Shown here: piece after piece, positions 10,374 through 48,886 of the stretch | Layout: every line of letters begins with the position of its first letter | Position numbering within the stretch: the first letter of the stretch is position 1 | Assembly (NCBI RefSeq): GCF_006345805.1 | Contig: NC_043006.1 | Span: 34,472,001 to 34,536,000 of the forward strand | DNA from: Octopus sinensis | Lineage: Eukaryota | Direction: 5' to 3' | DNA: 64,000 bases | Translations under genes and position numbers: made by a program | The notes under the pieces: model-generated | The model's database searches: none | Seen by the model: the letters and a program-made list of their open reading frames with translations, nothing else | Told to the model about the DNA's origin: nothing

Positions 10374-13223
10374 GATTCCAGAGTTTCCATCTAACAAACT
10401 TTAGTTGGCCTAGGGCTATAGCAGATACTTGCCCAAGTTGCAGTGCAGTGTAACTGAACTTGAAACCAGGTGGTTGCAAAGTGAGCTTCTTAACAACATA
10501 GCCATGCCTGCACTTTTTGCTTTGGTAAGCATGGGAAATAACTCTGGATCTGTTTAGTTATATTCTGGCCTCATTAGCAAAACATAGCTTTTCAGCTCTA
10601 CTTGCCTAAGTAGTAATGAAAGAATTACAAAGTAGATGTACAAGATTGAACACTGGTTGGCATAGAAAAGCAGAAATGTTTAAAGATTAAACAATTTAGA
10701 AATGCGATCTTCATGAAAAACAATTGTCATGATAAACATATTTATTGCGTTACAATGCAACTTTAGTGTAATGACTTCTTGGAAAAGTTATATAATTTTT
10801 TTCCTCACAATTGTTATCATTATTATTATTTTTTTTCAATTTCTATTGTTGTTTCTTCCAAACTGCTACAACAACAACAAAACAAGATTGTTACTACAAT
10901 AGTTATTTCTACATTTTTATTGCCCAGATGAACTTAACCATTAATTGTTCTGAGGTCAATAAAATAAAGTATCAGTCAGTTGATTAAATTGGCTTACCTC
11001 CAGCGAGGAGAAAAGCTACAATTAACTTCAGCAGGGTTTGAACTCAAACTGAAGATGGACAGATCTATATCACGAAAGACAGTTTAACTCTTGACAATTT
11101 ACAATATCCAATGGCCTTATTAAGAAATCGTTTATTCAATACATCTGATTCCAGTGTGTAGGTGATTTGGTTAAAATGTAATATAACACAAGAGCACCCT
11201 CAAATGCTGACTTCTTGAAGAATGTTCACAGAAAATGAAATTGAATACTTTCATTTATCATATAATCTACTTTTAGACACATACAACTGAACATGACTAA
11301 ATCTGTGTAAAATAAAGTTGTTAAAAAGTTTATGTAAGGATTCCTTACATATGCTCCACATAAAGTTTGTATTTTAAAACTAAATAAAATAAATTATTAT
11401 GGAGTCTATCTAATGATTATTTACATAACACAGGTTCTTACATTTCAACTGTTAACCTCCAAACAAATGAGGGTGATACTATGCAGCTGGTTGATCTCCT
11501 AGAAATAGCAGTTAAGTAATTCACTATCAGATCACATCCTATCATTTTCAAGAAAGTAGGACACATTGGATAATATAGTTTCCTGACAAAATGTCAGGAT
11601 GATCATGGTAGCAATTCTATTGATCATAGATTTGCACAGTCAGGACTGACCTGAAGCTAAACAGAAGCCTTTTGCCTTCATAGCAGTATATTAAACACTG
11701 ATATCATTCATAATAAAAAGTATATAAAATAAATTCTTACAAAGCCATTATAACTACCACCACCACCACCACCACGACCATCATCATTTACCATCCATGT
11801 CTCATGCTGGTATGGGTTGGCTGGTTTCTGGATCCAGTGGGTCCAAGGACTGCATTGTCATCTACTGTCTGTTTGGCATGGTTTTTACAACTGGATGTCT
11901 TCCATAATGCCAACCACTTTGCAGTGTGTACTGAGTGTTTCTTTTCATGCCACCAGCACCAGTGTGGTTGCCATGCAACTTGAAAGATGACACACGCTGA
12001 GTGAGGGGTGGGAACTTAAAGATCATAAAATAAGGAGTGAGTGACAAGTATGAGAGAAAAGGGCCAGAGCAGAACGGGTTTTTGGCCAGAGAGGAGTAGC
12101 ATGACTAGAGTCTATCTAACAATTTCTTACAGAAGCCTAAAACTCCAGATATAAATATTTCGCATTCATAACAGTCTTACCGTATCAAAGTTTTCATATT
12201 TCAAAGCTATTTTGTTAAAGAATTTATCAATTAATCTCTTAGATATGCCTCAGACTTAAATGTGTAGATACTTTCACACCCTAAAAACTAAACGAGTAAA
12301 GATGCATTGGATAATATAGTCTTAGGTAATCTTGCTTGTCCAGCCAAATGGATGCTGATCATGGCTTCACTTATGAAGGGGTCTCAGAAGGGAAGACAAC
12401 TTTACTTTTTGTCAGTTCCTTACGACTTTGGAATTGTTGTCTGATTGAGTCTCTTACAAGTTTACAGTACAGCCCCCCCCCCATATTTCCAAGAAGGTTG
12501 GTGTATATTAATCAATTAATTAAATGTTAATCTAGATGTTACTATATTCATACTGAGACAGATGGAAATTAAAATTAAAACCCCAGTAAGACCTTAAAAT
12601 ACAGCTGGAGGTAGAATCTAAGTAGTGTCAAGAATTTAGTTTGGCACTCAATCAATTACTGTCTTTTCACCACCAGCAACACCACCATGGTGCTGCTGCT
12701 GCTGATGATGATGGCGGTGGCATAGGAAAAAGAAAGTTTTTGGTGGGCGTTTCTAAGAATCAAAAATTAAATCCAAGAACTTGCCAGCTGCACTTCCTTG
12801 CTTTTCATACAATGACCTAGTTTGTTATATATTTAGAAAAAACATACTTGTGTGTGTGTGTGTACATACATATATATACACACACACACATACATATTTA
12901 TGCATGCAAGTATGTGTATGTGGGACATAATAGAAATTAACAATGTTGTAAAAAAATAAATTTGCACTCTCATGGGTGTATATTACAGAATTAAAGGGTG
13001 TTCTTTTTGTTGCTTATCCTCAGGTTAACTAAGACTGAGCAGAGCCAGGAGTTTTTACATGGACATTGTATATACCAAAGACAACATTGTTTAAAGTGTC
13101 TGCCTCCTCTCTTAAGACAGTAGGGTGTAATTTGAGGGAGGCTTGCCAAATATTGCTAAAACAGATTTTCCATGTTAGTTAAAAGTTAGATGATAATTTT
13201 AACAGGGATAAATAGATGCACCT

Positions 13224-13254
13224 ACTCACCTAAGAAAGGTAAAAGAAAAAAAAA
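13224..13254 (-). other. Candidate recursive splice site (3' acceptor fused to 5' donor), junction 13230|13229
   Basis: Minus strand TTTTTTTTTCTTTTACCTTTCTTAG|GTGAGT. Confidence 0.6.
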
Positions 13255-22449: not shown

Positions 22450-22940
22450 GAATGAAATGAAGCCACAATGTTTCACTGGACGTGCAGTGTCAGTATGCAA
22501 GTCTTGAGAGAAAAGTTGGACATAAGAGGCATCAGATGTGGTGTGCAAGAATGCATACGCTGTGCCATGTATGCATATAAATGAGGACAGCTGTGTAAAG
22601 AAGTGCTAATCTCTAAGTGTGGAGTGAAACTGTGGAAAAGGTTGACCCAGGAAGACATGGGATGAGGTGGTGAAGCATGATCTTTGAACATTGGGCTTCA
22701 CAGATGCAATGACAAGTGACTAAGACCTTTGATGGTATGCTGTGCTTGAGAAGATCCATCAAACCAAGTGAAATCATAGTTATGGCTGATGCCAGTGTCA
22801 CATAAAAGCACCTGTGCCAGTGGCATAAAATCACCCATTACACTCAGACTGGAACGCTGTGCAGTTCTTTGGCTTACCAGTTCCAGTCAAACCGTCCAAC
22901 TCATGCCAGCATGAAAAGCAGATACTAAATGATGATGATA
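22450..22940 (+). mobile_element. RTE LINE ORF C-terminus plus 3' UTR
   Basis: LREKLDIRGIRCGVQE..EDSCVKKC..PRKTWDEVVKHDL..YAVLEK, then the shared 3' end and GAT tail. Confidence 0.85.
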
Positions 22941-41833: not shown

Positions 41834-42304
41834 TTAACCTTTTTCATACCAACCCAGCTGAAACAACTACTGGCTCCGTACTACAAATGTCTTGTTTTCA
41901 AAAGTTCTGAATTAAAATCTTCCACCAAACCTTAGTCACAATTTATGTTCCTAACACCAGCTGAATGAAAACTAAGTTATTTTACTAAATTCTTTGTTAT
42001 ATTTCAAATTAATTGAAAGAAACACAATCCATCTCAACAGAAATACAGTAGCAAGAGGATTAAAATATATAATAGAGAAACAATTCTTAACCCTTTCAAT
42101 ACCAACCCGGCTGAAACCACCTCTGGCTCTGTCTTGTTTTCATAAGTTCTGAATTAAAATCTTCCACCAAACCTTAGTCACAATTTATGTTCCTAGCACT
42201 AGCTTAATGAAAACTAAGTTTTTTTGCTAAATTCTTTGTTATATTTAAAGTAATTGAAAGAAATACAGAGCATCTCGAAATAAATACAGTAACAAAAGGG
42301 TTAA
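41834..42304. mobile_element. Second copy of the piggyBac-like MITE dimer, inverted relative to 8170-8644
   Basis: Units 41834-42063 and 42087-42304, with the same spacer in reverse complement. Confidence 0.8.
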
Positions 42305-42550
42305 CTGAAGTTGCCTGCCTCTGAACTTCATCCATTTCTCATATCTTCCACTAGAAGTTTCCTTTAAGATTGCAGCCTGGGGCTTATCTTTGATGCACAC
42401 TATTGATTCTGGTGTGTCATGAAATTTGGTTATGTTATCTAAACCAATGCTTCTCAAACTATCTGATGTGGCATACTGATAGTTTTTGTTTCCAGTGTGC
42501 CAGGGTCCGGTAATATTTCCTAGTAATATTAATTTATACCAGAAACAATA

Positions 42551-42908
42551 TCATCATCATCATTTAACGTCCGTTTTCCGTGCTAGCATGGGTTGGACGG
42601 TTCGACCGGGGTCTGGGAAGCCGGGGGCTGCACCAGGCTTCAGTCTGATCTGGCAGAGGTTCTACAGATGGATGCCCTTCCTAACGCCAACCACTCCGCG
42701 AGTGTAGTGGGTGCTTTTTATGTGCCACCTGCACAGGTGCCAGGGGGGTCCGGCATCGGCCACGATCGGTTGGTGCTTTTAACGTGCCACCGGCATGGAA
42801 GCCAGCCAAGGTGGCGCTGGCATCGGCCACGTTCGGATGGTGCTTTTTATGTGCCACTGGCACTGGAGCCAATCAAGGCAGCGCTGGCATCGGCTACGTT
42901 CGGATGGT
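42551..42908 (-). mobile_element. Young RTE LINE 3' UTR, interrupted at 42908 and resumed at 45221-45240
   Basis: (CAT)n tail at 42551; CpG-rich subrepeats; last subrepeat ACGTTCGGATGGT|GCTTTTT split by the insert. Confidence 0.85.
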
Positions 42909-43671
42909 ACCGACAGAGATCAAAGAGGGTACCGACAGAGATCAAAGATGGTGCCGACAGAGATCAAAGAGGGTGCCGACAGAGATCAAAGAGGGTGCTG
43001 ACAGAGATTAAAGAGGGTGCAGACAGAGATTAAAGAGGGTGCAGACAGAGATCAAAGAGGGTGGCGACTGAGATCAAAGAGGGTACCGACAGAGATCAAA
43101 GAGGGTGCCGACAGAGATCAAAGAGGGTACCGACGGAGATCAAAGAGGGTACCGACAGAGATCAAAGAGGGTGACGACAGAGATCAAAGAGGGTGCAGAC
43201 AGAGATCAAAGAGGGTGCCGACAGAGATCAAAGAGGGTGCCGACAGAGATCAAAGGGGGTACCGACGGAGATCAAAGAGGGTACCGATGGAGATCAAAGA
43301 GGGTGCCGACAGAGATCAAAGATGGTGCAGACAGAGATCAAAGGGGGTGCCGACGAAGATCAAAGAGGTTGCTGACAGAGATCAAAGAGGGTGCCGACAG
43401 AAATCAAAGAGGGTGCCGACGGAGATCAAAGAGGTGCCGACGGAGATCAAAGAGGGTGCCGACGGAGATCAAAGAGGGTGCCGACGCAGATCAAAGAGGG
43501 TGCCGACAGAGATCAAAGGGGGTGCCGACAGAGATCAAAGAGGGTGCCGACAGAGATCAAAGAGGGTGCCGACATAGATCAAAGAGGGTGCCGACAGAGA
43601 TCAAAGAGGGTGCCGACAGAGATCAAAGAGGGTGCCGACAGAGATCAAATAGGGTGCCGACAGAGATCAAA
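42909..43671. repeat. 22-bp tandem array, 35 units (consensus GCCGACAGAGATCAAAGAGGGT)
   Basis: Counted directly; single-base variants, one 21-bp unit, no spacers. Confidence 0.95.
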
Positions 43672-44128
43672 ATCGAAGGGCGTGAAGCCGCCGCGCACCT
43701 AGGACCCGCGCGCGCAAGGCGGCTGCTACGACGGCCCGTACGCACCGGTCTCAGTCTAATATTTGCGCCGCGACCAATGCGGAAGGCCGACCGTATCATC
43801 GTGACCGGAAGGGACGGGCGTGGATGCGCGGCCCCCGAACCGGCCGAGCGGACGCCGGCGCCGCCGCGAAGACGCGACAGCTGCTGGACGTCGTTTTCGA
43901 GCCCAATGCCCGGGTGCGTCCTGCGATCGCGACTTCGGTTGCATGTATTATTAGCTCTAGAATTGCCACAGTTATCCACTCTCCTCGCGGTGGAAGAATA
44001 CGGTCCCGAGGATTAGGTCCGGTTCCTGAGCCATTTGCGGTTTCACCATTCGTTTACGGCATGAACTTACACTTGCATGGCTTAAGCTTTGAGACAAGCA
44101 TATGAGTACTGGCAGGATCAACCAGGTA
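43672..44128 (-). pseudogene. 18S rRNA: 18S rRNA 5' fragment (~457 nt, GC-expanded V2), truncated
   Basis: Minus strand starts TACCTGGTTGATCCTGCCAGTACTCATATGCTTGTCTCAAAGCTTAAGCCATGC at 44128 and contains GGATAACTGTGGCAATTCTAGAGCTAAT; it ends abruptly in the array. Confidence 0.92.
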
Positions 44129-44866
44129 TCACCGACGTTTCAAAAGAACGAAGCGCAGCAGCGGCGGAAGCTCGCGAAGCAGCCGCCGCCGCCGATCGAA
44201 AAAAAAACGAGAAGAAAAGGAATTGGCGGGGCCGAAAACAGAGGCGTTAGTGCTCACGTGTTCGGCCGCCGTTCGTATATGCACGCGCCTCCTCCAACGC
44301 TGGGGAGGCGAAAACAAATGAGTCAACACGCGAAGAAGCGTTCGCGGAGCAAAAACGATTTGTGATCCGACTGCCGCACACCAGGGCTGCTGCGGGTCGA
44401 TTGGAAGTGGGGCCGCTTTCGGGCGGAAGAGGTGAAGGCCAGCGACTAAGGCAGTAGACGAGAGGGGCAGCGGCGATGGGCGGCCCCGATGCAGCTTTTA
44501 GACTCGCCCGGCGCCCTATGCGTCAGTGGTCACTTCCTCCTCCTCCTCCTTTCGAAACGGCTGCGATGAACTGCGTCCGGACTGCGGTCAATGAGCGAGT
44601 GCTATGACGATGGTCGCCACGAAAACGACGCGCGCCAAGGCGGTGATGCCGGGGGAAGCTGCAGAAATGCTATGAGGCAGCGAAACCCGGAGTTGAAGCC
44701 ACGGTTCTGTCCAGGGAAGAAGGGACAGACACGGCACCGCTAACTTTCGGTGACGCCGCGTTGCCTGTGGCGGAACGGGAACGGTGGCGAAGCAACACGA
44801 GGTCAACGGCGTAACCTGACCGGGTCCTCAGCTGCGAAGACGAGGCCGGGGGTCGGAGGAGGCGAG
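44129..44866 (-). other. Putative 5' external transcribed spacer of rDNA
   Basis: GC- and CpG-rich unique sequence directly upstream of the 18S 5' end. Confidence 0.75.
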
Positions 44867-45022
44867 AAGAGGGTGCTGACAGAGATCAAGGAGGGTGCCG
44901 ACAGAGATCAAAGAGGGTGCCGACAGAGATCAAAGAGTGTACCGACAGAGATCAAGGAGTGTACCGACATAGATCAAAGAGGGTGCCGACAGAGATCAAA
45001 TAGGGTGCCGACAGAGATCAAA
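44867..45022. repeat. Second 22-bp array, 7 units
   Basis: Same unit and same terminal variants (GACATAG, CAAATAGGG) as the first array. Confidence 0.95.
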
Positions 45023-45213
45023 ATCGAAGGGCGTGAAGCCGCCGCACCCCTAGGACCCGCGCGCAGAAGGTGTAGCGGCTGCTACGACGGCCCGTACGCG
45101 TCGGTCTCAGTCTAATATTTGCGCCGCGACTAATGCGGAAGGCCGACTGTATCGTCGTGACTGGAAGGGACGGGCGCGGATGCGCCGCCCCCGAACCGGC
45201 CGAGCGGACACCG
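45023..45213 (-). pseudogene. Second, diverged copy of the 18S V2 segment
   Basis: Aligns to about 43672-43858 with roughly a dozen substitutions and a small indel. Confidence 0.88.
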
Positions 45214-45408
45214 CAAAGAGACGTCGGATGGTGCTTTTTTATATAATGAATATAATAAAAGTTGGCTATTTAAAAAAATTTTATGTTTATTTTGTAAACA
45301 AATAATACAATATTACATAAGCATTTCATAATGCTTCTTTCTTTCCTGGAAACTTGCTACGTATCGGTGTGGCACTGATCTAAGCCCCTTCTCTAGCAAA
45401 CTAATAAC

Positions 45409-45640: not shown

Positions 45641-46059
45641 AAATTAATATCCTGCATGCATGCTGTCACATCTAATAGTGTTTGCTCATATGCAAATAAT
45701 ATACCAATGCTGATCTGGGACTAAATAACAATTCAATATTTGAGACATCAGTTTGGAAGCAGGAACAAGAAAAGCTTGTAATTAAAATCTGTTAAAACAG
45801 GCTCCAAACAGAAAAAGTAAAAACAAAAGAAAGAAAAAAATATATAAAGTAGAAAAATAGTGAAATCAGTCAGATAAATAGATTTGTCTAGATAGGCAAT
45901 TGAACATATTGTACAAGAAAATATTGATCAATGTGCAGTTTTGTGTCTTTGAAATAAAATAGTTGCTGTAGTTTTTTAATGCTCTTGGGAAATGGTTTCC
46001 GGTCAATATGTGAAGGTGTAAAGACAAATAAATGGTATGGCAGTATAAGTGATTTGATT

Positions 46060-46700
46060 GATTAAGTGAGAAGATGAGCGAGTCTGTGAGAGTGAAAGAA
46101 AGAATTGAGAGAGATAAAGACAGAATGAAGGAATTTTAATGTGTGTGTGTGTGTGATGGAAGGAAGTGGAAGAGGGAGTGTGTGTGTGTGTGTGTGAAGA
46201 AGCAAGACATAAAAGAAAAAGACAATGGAAGGAGATATGAATGAAGAAAACAAATGGATGATTGTGTAAGAAGAAAATGAAAGAGGAAAAACGAGGGAGA
46301 GTATAGAATGCATTTGTGTGTGAAGTAGATAGAAGGAGAAACGAAGGAATAGAGAAAGGTATAAGAAGAAAGAGGGAGAGGATATAAGGGAGAGAAAAAC
46401 CAGAAAAATAGGGAACAAATATAAAAAGAGAGAGGAAGAGAGTTCGAGAAAATAGTAAGAGAAAGGAGGAGGAAAGGAAAACAAAGAGAGGGGAGGAGAA
46501 GAAAGAAATAATTAATTTAAGAAAAGAAAGGCATAAGTATTTCAGATAGTAGGAATGAGAGGAAAGAAAAAAGTAAGAGAGGAGACTGAAAGGGGAACCA
46601 AAGAGAAGGTGAAAAAAAAAAAAAAAAAAAGATGAGAGCGTGAGTGAGAAAGAGGATGAAGAAGAAAGAGAGAAATAAAAGTAGTGTAAAATGAAGATAA
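46060..46700 (+). repeat. Long purine-rich (GA-rich) low-complexity tract
   Basis: Strong A/G strand bias over about 640 bp. Confidence 0.85.
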
Positions 46701-47109
46701 GTAAGTCAAAGAAACTAATTTACTTGCGATATTATTTAATAATTCCAATAGGTGTATGAGGGGAAAATATGTTGCAATAGCTTGTCCCTTTATATTCTGA
46801 GCTTAAATTGCACCTAGGTTGACTTTATCATTTAGTATTCCTGTGCAGAAGTACCTGCTAAGTGCACCAAACAAACCGACTTGTCAATTAAGTCCTTCTG
46901 TGGAAACCTCAGGGGCAACAGCACAAGAGATATCTAAGATTAAATAGTACAAGATCGACAGGGACCATTAGCTGATAAACCTAGGATGGAAAGATGCTGT
47001 AAGGGCAGCTGGTGACTGATTGTGCTGGAATAATTTGACTTCCTCAAGCATCAGCTGATGCAAGAAAACCTAAGTTTAAGTATGTACCAGGTTGATTTAA
47101 TAGAATATC

Positions 47110-47320
47110 CGAGGGGGTGCTGAAAAGTGCCTGGCTTTACAGGCATCACGAAAGGCCTGGTGGAAACCCAACCTCTCAAGTTCTTTTACAGGGCTTAGAA
47201 AAACTGAAGGACCACTGCAATAAGTGTGTGAATATGAGAAGGGAATAAGTTGAATAGAATCATAATTAACTGATCCTCATGGATTTTCTTTTACCCAAAG
47301 TCAAGAACCCTTCAGCACTG
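47110..47320 (+). mobile_element. Mariner deletion derivative (MITE)
   Basis: TIRs GTGCTGAAAAGTGCCTGGCTTT / AAAGTCAAGAACCCTTCAGCAC; internal GLEKLKDHCNKCVNMRRE*VE* resembles the mariner transposase C-terminus. An isolated TIR lies at about 40738-40772. Confidence 0.75.
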
Positions 47321-48856
47321 TACTTCACCCCACAAAAATGTGACTATGTTTATGTAGAAAATATTATCCATGACAGAGAATAAAAATTATTACAAATTCA
47401 AGGACACATTGAATTAACTAAACTAAACCTGAACTTTAAATAAAACCTTTTGGAAGATGGTCACATAGATTGCCAAATGATAAAGCATTATATACTTCCT
47501 CTGTTTTTTTTTTTTTTGGTTTTCCCTATAATTCCAAGTTATGTTTGGAGCTATGATCATTCACAGGTAAAATTGTTAAAGGAAGTGTGTTTTTCCAGTT
47601 TGATAAATGTGTTTATCATAGTTACATAATTAAAATTATCAAACAACATGAGGGATGGGTTTCTGCAAAGCCTATCGACTTGATAGAAATGGCCAAATCT
47701 CACTCAAATTCCTCACCATACCATTTTAAAAGGTGACAGACACTATGAATCATATAGTTCAAGATAGACTATGTCTAAAATAGAAAGAAAAAGACAGAAT
47801 GGTTACTGTTGGAATGTCTTAGATTATGTAGAGGACTGCATGCACAAATATGATAAAAAATAAAAAACAAAAGGTAACAACAATTAGGATTGCTCCCTGC
47901 ACCCACTGATACACGTTTTAGCCAAGAAAAATGAAAGGAAGTTTAATATTCTTCAATCTTTACAAAATCAATTAACTTAACCAGAGAACGTTAGATAAAA
48001 AAAAAATTAGCTCGAAATACATTTTGTAAAATTGTGAGATACACAAAAGAGAATACTCTTCACAGAATTTAGTAAAGTTCAGTGATCTCTCTCTCTCACA
48101 CACACACACACATACACAGAAGTGTATTACCTGTCAAAAATGATGCAATTTACTTCTGCCTCCTTTCAGTAATTTCTAATGCTTTTGTTTCAAGCTTTGC
48201 TCCATTTTCTTCTTATGTTTCATTTTATCTTCTTTTAGTCATTCTTTTTAACTTCACTCATTCTCTTAATTTTCAAACTTATATGATTACATCTCTATCT
48301 AAATATATCTGTATTTTCTAAAATTTTTTCCACTCAATCAAAATCTGCCTCAACCCCTTTTCTCCCCAACCCTTCCATACCATACAGGAATTCCTTTTTC
48401 TATCTCTATTGTTCTTTCTATATCCTACTTATTTTATCCCATTACTTCTCTAATTCCCCATCAGTACTGTAGAGCTTTATCTTTCTTCACTTCTTTCTAC
48501 TTCTCTCACCCTTTCTTCTACTCCTCCCTCTATTTCCATGTCTGCTACTCTGAATATTGTATGACTGCTGACAAATTTTCTATTACTTTTCATCCCACGC
48601 TGTCAATCCCACTTTTATATTAAATCTTTCTTCATATTACTTTTCATTTCTCTCTCTCTCTTCCACATCATTCAGCACAGTTACTACTTTCTCCTATCAG
48701 CATGTAAAGGAGAGACAAATGACCCAACAAGAAAATGGATATATCACGTTGCATTATATGTATAAAGATACCACTAGCATATTGATGGATGGTATTCTTC
48801 TGTCATTACTGGTGCCAATGTTCCTCCAAATGAGCAAGACAGCTTTCGAAAACATC

Positions 48857-48886
48857 ACTTACCTAGAAAGAGAAAGAAAAAAAAAG
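48857..48886 (-). other. Candidate recursive splice site, junction 48863|48862
   Basis: Minus strand CTTTTTTTTTCTTTCTCTTTCTAG|GTAAGT: 22 consecutive pyrimidines, AG, then a perfect donor. Confidence 0.65.

Follow-up and report, generated by a model that had tools for sequence, protein, structure and literature searches.

Organisation of the Block

The window analysed here is a 64,000 nt stretch of C10, and carries a block of rDNA and minisatellite sequence on its minus strand (Table 1). Judged by its expanded 18S and its repeat families, the host is most likely an octopus. Read on that strand, the order is 17 nt of a LINE 3′ UTR, a V2 piece of 18S, seven 22 bp units, a 5′ external transcribed spacer (ETS), 18S nt 1 to ~457, 35 units of 22 bp, and the remainder of the LINE 3′ UTR, with the rDNA block bracketed by a 9 bp direct repeat of that UTR. 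The parts are arranged as X-Y-X, where X is V2 plus array and Y is the ETS plus the 5′ part of 18S. This is the layout of the original prediction, which had a ~740 bp spacer in the middle, and it is borne out by coordinates, repeat detection and Rfam. The Rfam match (SSU_rRNA_eukarya, E = 2e-18) begins at 44128; a scan of the whole window at the gathering threshold returned nothing. The spacer is a decayed 5′ETS, showing 75–76% identity to the DNA 5′ of 18S in three rDNA units and 88% identity to the corresponding copy on C14.

Table 1. Positions of the rDNA block, its LINE context and the splice-site-like sequences in the window.
Feature	Position	Strand	Evidence or remark
Ratchet-point-like site: polypyrimidine and AG, then GTAAGT	48845..48863	-	sequence; 5′ boundary of C6 daughter
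Host DNA carried into C6 daughter as 5′ transduction (likely intronic)	45928..48863	-	44 substitutions in 2878 aligned bases
LINE 3′ UTR (truncated), 5′ remnant	45224..45240	-	holds left copy of 9 bp direct repeat, 45232-45224
18S piece 1, V2 region, decayed	45020..45223	-	sequence comparison
22 bp minisatellite, 7 units (7.1 copies)	44867..45022	-	TTTG microhomology at 18S join
5′ external transcribed spacer, decayed, 738 bp	44129..44866	-	TT microhomology at array join
18S rRNA 5′ end, nt 1 to ~457, decayed	43669..44128	-	Rfam match; intact copies run on as ordinary 18S
22 bp minisatellite, 35 units (34.9 copies, 92% matches)	42906..43671	-	repeat detection
RTE-like LINE 3′ UTR: 66 bp repeats, (TGA)n tail	42549..42908	-	right 9 bp repeat copy 42908-42900; 3′ boundary of C6 and C3 daughters
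Ratchet-point-like site 2: pyrimidine tract, AG, GTGAGT	13212..13230	-	35.6 kb downstream of 48863 on same strand

The element with 66 bp repeats makes up the 3′ UTR of a LINE that is abundant and whose longer copies carry an upstream RVT_1 frame (E = 4e-18); its classification as a SINE was therefore rejected. From its motifs, we take this LINE to be RTE-like. Its (TGA)n tail lies at about 42550 in the window. Two papers, in their accessible portions, describe RTE LINEs whose 3′ ends are microsatellites, both in octopus and elsewhere (PMC9115989, PMC6007223).

Pieces specific to the window are also found in run X3, which comes from another study and has another organism label: 96 nt of 18S piece 1 match with no differences, and contigs of this run contain two stretches of the spacer, 156 and 124 nt long, each with one difference. 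Hence, the block is not an assembly artefact, and the mis-assembly or contamination that had been named as a possible objection does not apply. No contig spanning a block junction was seen among the matches listed, and among those listed for other organisms, inspected for an empty site, none bridges the left junction.

The 18S–Array Junction and the Two 18S Pieces

The two array/18S junctions of the window are identical, as first described. A 39-mer across the junction has exactly two exact matches in the 2.72 Gb genome, both inside the window, while a relaxed pattern finds four places on three chromosomes (two in the window, one on C6 and one on C14). The C6 junction is at the identical base and that of C14 is 2 nt shorter. 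A search with V2 DNA agrees, the array following in 4 of the 40 matches scored; V2 matches on C1 and C11112 that run a few bases beyond the junction turned out to be plain 18S. Intact 18S copies continue with ordinary sequence past the junction point, showing that the array is foreign to 18S, and the join uses a 4 nt TTTG microhomology.

The C14 locus (C14:55275562-55285365) is a 6.1 kb rDNA fragment consisting of the end of an R2-site element, the 3′ part of 28S from the R2 site, IGS, ETS and the 5′ part of 18S. A 22-mer array closes each end, with the same strand pointing outward in both: 21 units after the 18S and 126 units, in opposite orientation, at the other end. In a phylogenetic tree of ETS and 18S sequences (18 of the 31 collected, some rows being partly non-homologous flank), the long copy of the window groups with that of C14 (support 95/93). 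Together with the C6 and C14 junctions, this upholds the earlier proposal that the junction is older than the present insertion and was copied. The simplest reading is that one old fusion accounts for all four junctions.

In an alignment of the two 18S pieces of the window, 13 of 179 columns show a difference and there is an indel, so the dozen substitutions originally described are present. Nine of the 13 are at CpG sites (CpG makes up 39% of positions) and each is private, being shared with at most one of 18 other copies; between piece 1 and its own daughter on C6 the number is as high, with 12 of 175 positions differing. These differences, mostly CpG decay, do not prove that the pieces are copies of an amplified unit, as had been argued from them. 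Two derived V2 states are common to both window pieces and C6 and absent from C14, and the two pieces likely came from one donor and then decayed in place. The suggested tandem or amplified family of ~1.35 kb units does not exist in the assembly, as the array-to-ETS junction was found in 1 of 49 matches, i.e., in the window alone (40 scored of 195 candidates).

Probable Daughter Copies on C6 and C3

The array-to-LINE junction is present at exactly three loci: the window, C6:83.96 Mb and C3:45.46 Mb. On both C6 and C3 the matching stops at the (TGA)n tail, and both adjoin (TA)n tracts, in which no target duplication is readable. The C3 daughter is array and tail alone. The C6 daughter comprises the tail, 62 units, 18S piece 1 and 2.9 kb of upstream DNA of the window, and is the only one of the two to carry rRNA. 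Its flank diverges by 1.5% (44/2878) from the window and is the only long match among 40 scored of 8499 candidates; by the rate implied in the accessible part of PMC13282606, the copy is roughly 2 million years old. C6 is missing 700 bp of window DNA and the ETS unit, so two further deletions or template jumps are needed. An intron was rejected as the cause of the 700 bp gap because GT..AG ends are absent. C3 is the more divergent copy in the tail (19/350 versus 11/350), and its array variants are shared with C6, not with the window of today, leaving the parent of C3 uncertain. As judged from these boundaries, both copies were likely made from host-gene intron RNA by retrocopying primed from the LINE tail, and it is this mode of amplification that the original prediction overlooked.

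A rather unlikely alternative for the window itself is that the locus first had a single V2 plus array, into which a small extrachromosomal circle of ETS, 18S and array integrated by homology to give X-Y-X, the daughters still being retrocopies. The permuted order is what integration of a circle would be expected to produce, and C6 has a single X, which has one V2 change and the array start in common with piece 1 of the window and the array end in common with piece 2. However, C6 would look no different if Y-X had been lost between direct repeats, and it carries a second deletion in any case. The two window pieces also have states in common that C14 does not show, among them the first array unit, and no second array-to-ETS junction occurs in the 49 matches.

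A Splice-Site-Like Boundary and Candidate Recursive Splicing

The homology between the window and C6 begins exactly at 48863 (C10:34520863), at a pyrimidine tract and AG followed directly by GTAAGT. This arrangement resembles a ratchet point. Acceptors with at least 17/18 pyrimidines number two on the minus strand of the window, and both have it (48863 and 13230). A third ratchet-point-like site is found on the same strand at C10:34379281, 106 kb downstream of position 13230. Over 384 kb, GTRAGT follows good acceptors in 3 of 156 cases on the minus strand versus 0 of 124 on the plus strand. The combination of a strong pyrimidine tract with AG|GTRAGT is strand-specific, and the spacing within the putative long intron is 105, 36 and 106 kb.

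C6 has seven extra bases before GTAAGT, and these are identical to the end of a candidate exon 105 kb upstream on the same strand (C10:34625812). The exon match is 7 nt, or 9 nt if one CpG change is allowed. The 13-mer formed by the 7 nt exon end and GTAAGT occurs once in 384 kb, counting both strands, and the DNA around it is a CpG island, with an o/e of 1.12 compared with 0.39; for the 62 GTRAGT sites upstream, chance predicts about 0.003 such matches. The spliced, joint form was found only at C6. Just upstream of the CpG-island exon, long frames resembling the gag-pol of an LTR retrotransposon are present (L111:2058-6106).

A start at AG|GTAAGT, preceded by seven bases matching an upstream exon end, indicates that C6 is most likely a copy of a recursive-splicing intermediate. 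Its template would likely have been an RNA with the first exon already joined to the ratchet point and the next intron segment still present, and the block itself likely lies inside a giant intron of a host gene. Against the exon reading, the match is short, a cDNA ending that near a splice joint is itself unlikely, and antisense LINE tails contain GGAACTG followed by GTAAG as well (at 22883 in the window, for example), so a template switch could mimic the exon joint. Lariat read-through was rejected as the origin of the seven bases because the 7-mer does not occur upstream of the 13230 acceptor. Pfam and homologue searches with the candidate exons of the host gene were empty, and nothing in 384 kb could be singled out as a coding exon of that gene. 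The stretch 42317-42520, considered as a host exon, was rejected on the same grounds, having no Pfam or homologue match. An open frame of 101 codons directly follows the LINE tail, at 42245-42550 on the minus strand; an AG lies close to its start, and no homologue was found.

As described in the available text of 10.1101/006163, the ratchet points of zero-nucleotide recursive splicing in Drosophila likewise have adjoining strong 3′ and 5′ splice sites, a long intron and a prominent pyrimidine tract, and the TT at −5/−6 of the Drosophila type is present in two of the three sites reported here. Unlike those of Drosophila, which are known from RNA-seq and lariat reads (10.1101/006163, same portions), the present site is known from a genomic DNA copy of the joint. 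The literature search returned no paper joining recursive splicing and octopus and, among the matches listed, none on recursive splicing in cephalopods or on retrocopies of such intermediates.

It is improbable that C6 and C3 are instead DNA-level templated duplications made by break repair, in which case the splice-site and LINE-tail boundaries would be coincidence or microhomology. Many 22-mer arrays are indeed embedded in DNA unrelated to them and end in microhomology at a wide range of phases; being simple sequence, the (TGA)n tail could also anneal to microsatellites. However, C6 starts at the acceptor that is the strongest of the 64 kb, with bases in front that come from a donor 105 kb distant, and the same LINE tail ends both daughters.

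On balance, and with some reserve, we favour the reading of C6 as a germ-line cDNA fossil of a recursive-splicing intermediate. A cephalopod would then use ratchet points of the Drosophila type, and intronic LINE tails would prime reverse transcription of nascent RNA, spread rDNA and minisatellites, and start SVA-like composites. If this is true, retrocopies that start at AG|GTRAGT would map recursive splicing from DNA alone. The C6 daughter supplies an exact donor (C10:34625812) and ratchet point (C10:34520863), providing a testable lead on recursive splicing in cephalopods.

The 22 bp Minisatellite

The 22-mer is dispersed genome-wide (493 exact matches to a 37-mer), and among the matches listed its arrays reach 7 kb and occur inside SINEs, microsatellites and other repeats. 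Some arrays are inverted or alternate with 9–10 bp repeats; at unrelated loci, the alternating partners are a 9-mer, an AT-rich palindromic 10-mer and a GC palindromic 10-mer, and arrays often invert at their own GATC palindrome. Array ends fall on 17 of the 22 phases in 35 array segments, as counted with a crude script, and the genome contains TTAGGG arrays (1016 matches), so a telomerase-like register is not indicated and the 22-mer is probably not the telomere unit of octopus. An 18 kb interstitial stretch rich in TTAGGG (C1:75755887-75774223) lies ~40 kb from an rDNA fragment (C1:75812485).

No 22-mer arrays are present in three rDNA units (C11589, C12776 and C913), and the continuous 6075 bp of 28S-IGS-ETS-18S on C14 contains neither an array nor a unit. 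Between the 22-mer and a unit with 18S, 5.8S, 28S and the full IGS, the longest shared word is 9 nt and there are at least seven mismatches; the units compared are dispersed copies in the assembly rather than functional arrays. Judged by these comparisons, the 22-mer is a dispersed minisatellite and not the IGS/ETS subrepeat that had been suggested. It was also rejected as part of an R2-like element, as the R2-site element end that adjoins the C14 array recurs once elsewhere, without an array. Copy number estimates from contig depth were discarded as unusable, being sums over contigs that overlap and seem to be capped. A description of the 22-mer repeat is absent among the literature matches listed.

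It seems very unlikely that a sequence-specific element or repeat-adding enzyme, itself unassembled, repeatedly places the 22-mer at 18S nt ~457 in rDNA arrays collapsed by the assembly. The 2 nt difference of the C14 junction and the outward-pointing arrays at both ends of the C14 piece would fit such an activity, as would the wide variation of summed 22-mer contig depth among runs, and real arrays would go unseen because the assembly holds only dispersed rDNA copies. However, 0 of 27 downstream 18S halves follow an array, i.e., there is no right-hand junction of the kind that a site-specific insertion would leave, and the original suggestion of site-specific addition in 18S fails on this count. 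The array-linked copies also form one old lineage, no coding frame is attached to them, and neither the many phases of the array ends nor the ordinary TTAGGG arrays favour a repeat-adding enzyme. Two of the 27 downstream 18S pieces begin within ~10 nt of the junction site, in unrelated DNA, which together with the shorter C14 junction leaves room for a break-prone site.

The other options first proposed, i.e., a truncated rDNA repeat with spacer subrepeats that became a tandem family, or a TRIM whose terminal repeats derive from rRNA, would explain the identical junctions and the direct repetition of V2 plus array around a unique middle, but can practically be set aside, because the 22-mer is absent from the full rDNA unit and from 28S-IGS-ETS of C14, the repeats are unequal and without TG..CA ends, PBS or PPT, there is no TGG after repeat 1, plain 18S precedes repeat 2, and the structure is single-copy.

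Comparison with Known Elements

The cassette combines unrelated parts, a central VNTR and a 3′ end recognised by a LINE, as in an SVA-like composite. According to the accessible portions of PMC6139936, SVA/LAVA elements, especially SVA_F1 (MAST2) and chimpanzee pt_SVA_D6 (STK40), are likewise non-coding composites that have a VNTR in the middle and end 3′ in sequence that a LINE can use. Their copies, too, are 5′-truncated and carry 5′ transductions, and they acquire a GC-rich first exon by splicing from upstream, as the C6 copy putatively did. Unlike the SINE-R/Alu/poly(A) of SVA (PMC6139936, same portions), the parts here are 18S/ETS, a 22 bp minisatellite and an RTE-like 3′ UTR with (TGA)n; the copies number three, and the acceptor is a host AG|GTAAGT 3.6 kb upstream, not one within the element. 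By analogy, the cassette appears to behave much as primate SVA source elements that have a spliced 5′ transduction do, yet it is not an SVA. Of the marks of target-primed reverse transcription, a common tail, 5′ truncation and a spliced-type joint are seen in the daughters, and a target site duplication is unreadable in (TA)n. With three loci and 1.5% flank divergence, the cassette is not an established family, nor an expanded, active one of the SVA type.

SINE28 and other rRNA-derived retroposons, as far as the available text describes them (PMC4994717, PMC10946416, PMC5786205), are similar in that large-rRNA sequence is moved by LINE machinery. In contrast, the rRNA here is 18S V2 and not 28S, is carried by one of two daughters, and does not form a uniform high-copy family (PMC10946416, PMC5786205, in part). 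The Cassandra/Ajax TRIMs, with 5S in their LTRs (PMC10946416, in part), also place rRNA sequence within a direct repeat, but the cassette is without LTR ends, PBS, PPT and a Pol III promoter, and its two-repeat form is single-copy. TRIMs have a 4–6 bp target duplication and many copies, whereas the repeat found here is 9 bp.

Among the non-LTR elements that target rDNA, R2 inserts at 28S and R7/R8 at 18S, and R2-site insertions do exist in the 28S of this genome. The likeness to these is a junction at one 18S position in several copies; the cassette differs in being without a right-hand junction and without an ORF, and in belonging to one lineage. Independent insertions in differing rDNA lineages would mark an 18S-specific element; the window and C14 copies form one clade, but the C14 junction is 2 nt shorter. 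As far as the accessible parts of the literature define these groups, the cassette belongs neither to the Cassandra-type TRIMs nor to the SINE28-like families or the R-type 18S elements (PMC10946416, PMC5786205, PMC4994717, PMC13174262, PMC7692494).

Proposed Origin

The block is probably best explained as a decayed rDNA fragment and a dispersed 22 bp minisatellite within a LINE 3′ UTR, from which LINE reverse transcriptase likely made copies on two chromosomes out of host intron RNA, one of them likely from a recursive-splicing intermediate. Initially, microhomology repair would have joined one rDNA fragment to the minisatellite at 18S nt ~457, and C14 retains the longest piece of this lineage (28S 3′ part, IGS, ETS, 18S and array). 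In the window, the parts are rearranged as X-Y-X between the 9 bp direct repeats in the LINE 3′ UTR; both X parts likely derive from one donor, by template switching or via a small circle, with later decay. The C6 and C3 copies share the array-to-LINE junction and stop at the (TGA)n tail beside (TA)n, consistent with target-primed reverse transcription from that tail. Lastly, C6 starts at AG|GTAAGT with extra bases equal to the exon end 105 kb upstream, and its template RNA would have had the first intron segment removed and the next one retained.

The cassette itself is minor, probably a small, dead, SVA-like chimera of three copies, and its main value lies in the apparent splicing fossil. 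It also illustrates, step by step, how an SVA-like composite of rRNA piece, VNTR and LINE tail can form and move outside primates.

Other rDNA Fragments in the Genome

At least 27 dispersed rDNA fragments containing 18S, of different ages, are present on many chromosomes. In one rDNA copy (L032), the 18S gene is 2639 nt long, and on C12776 the copies of a ~4.4 kb direct repeat lie on either side of a 12 kb rDNA fragment. Apparently non-coding elements with differing 3′ ends are inserted in the 28S of C11589, L101 and L102, at a position that we take to be the R2 site, and may possibly be non-autonomous R2 derivatives; that of C11589 replaces a large part of 28S.
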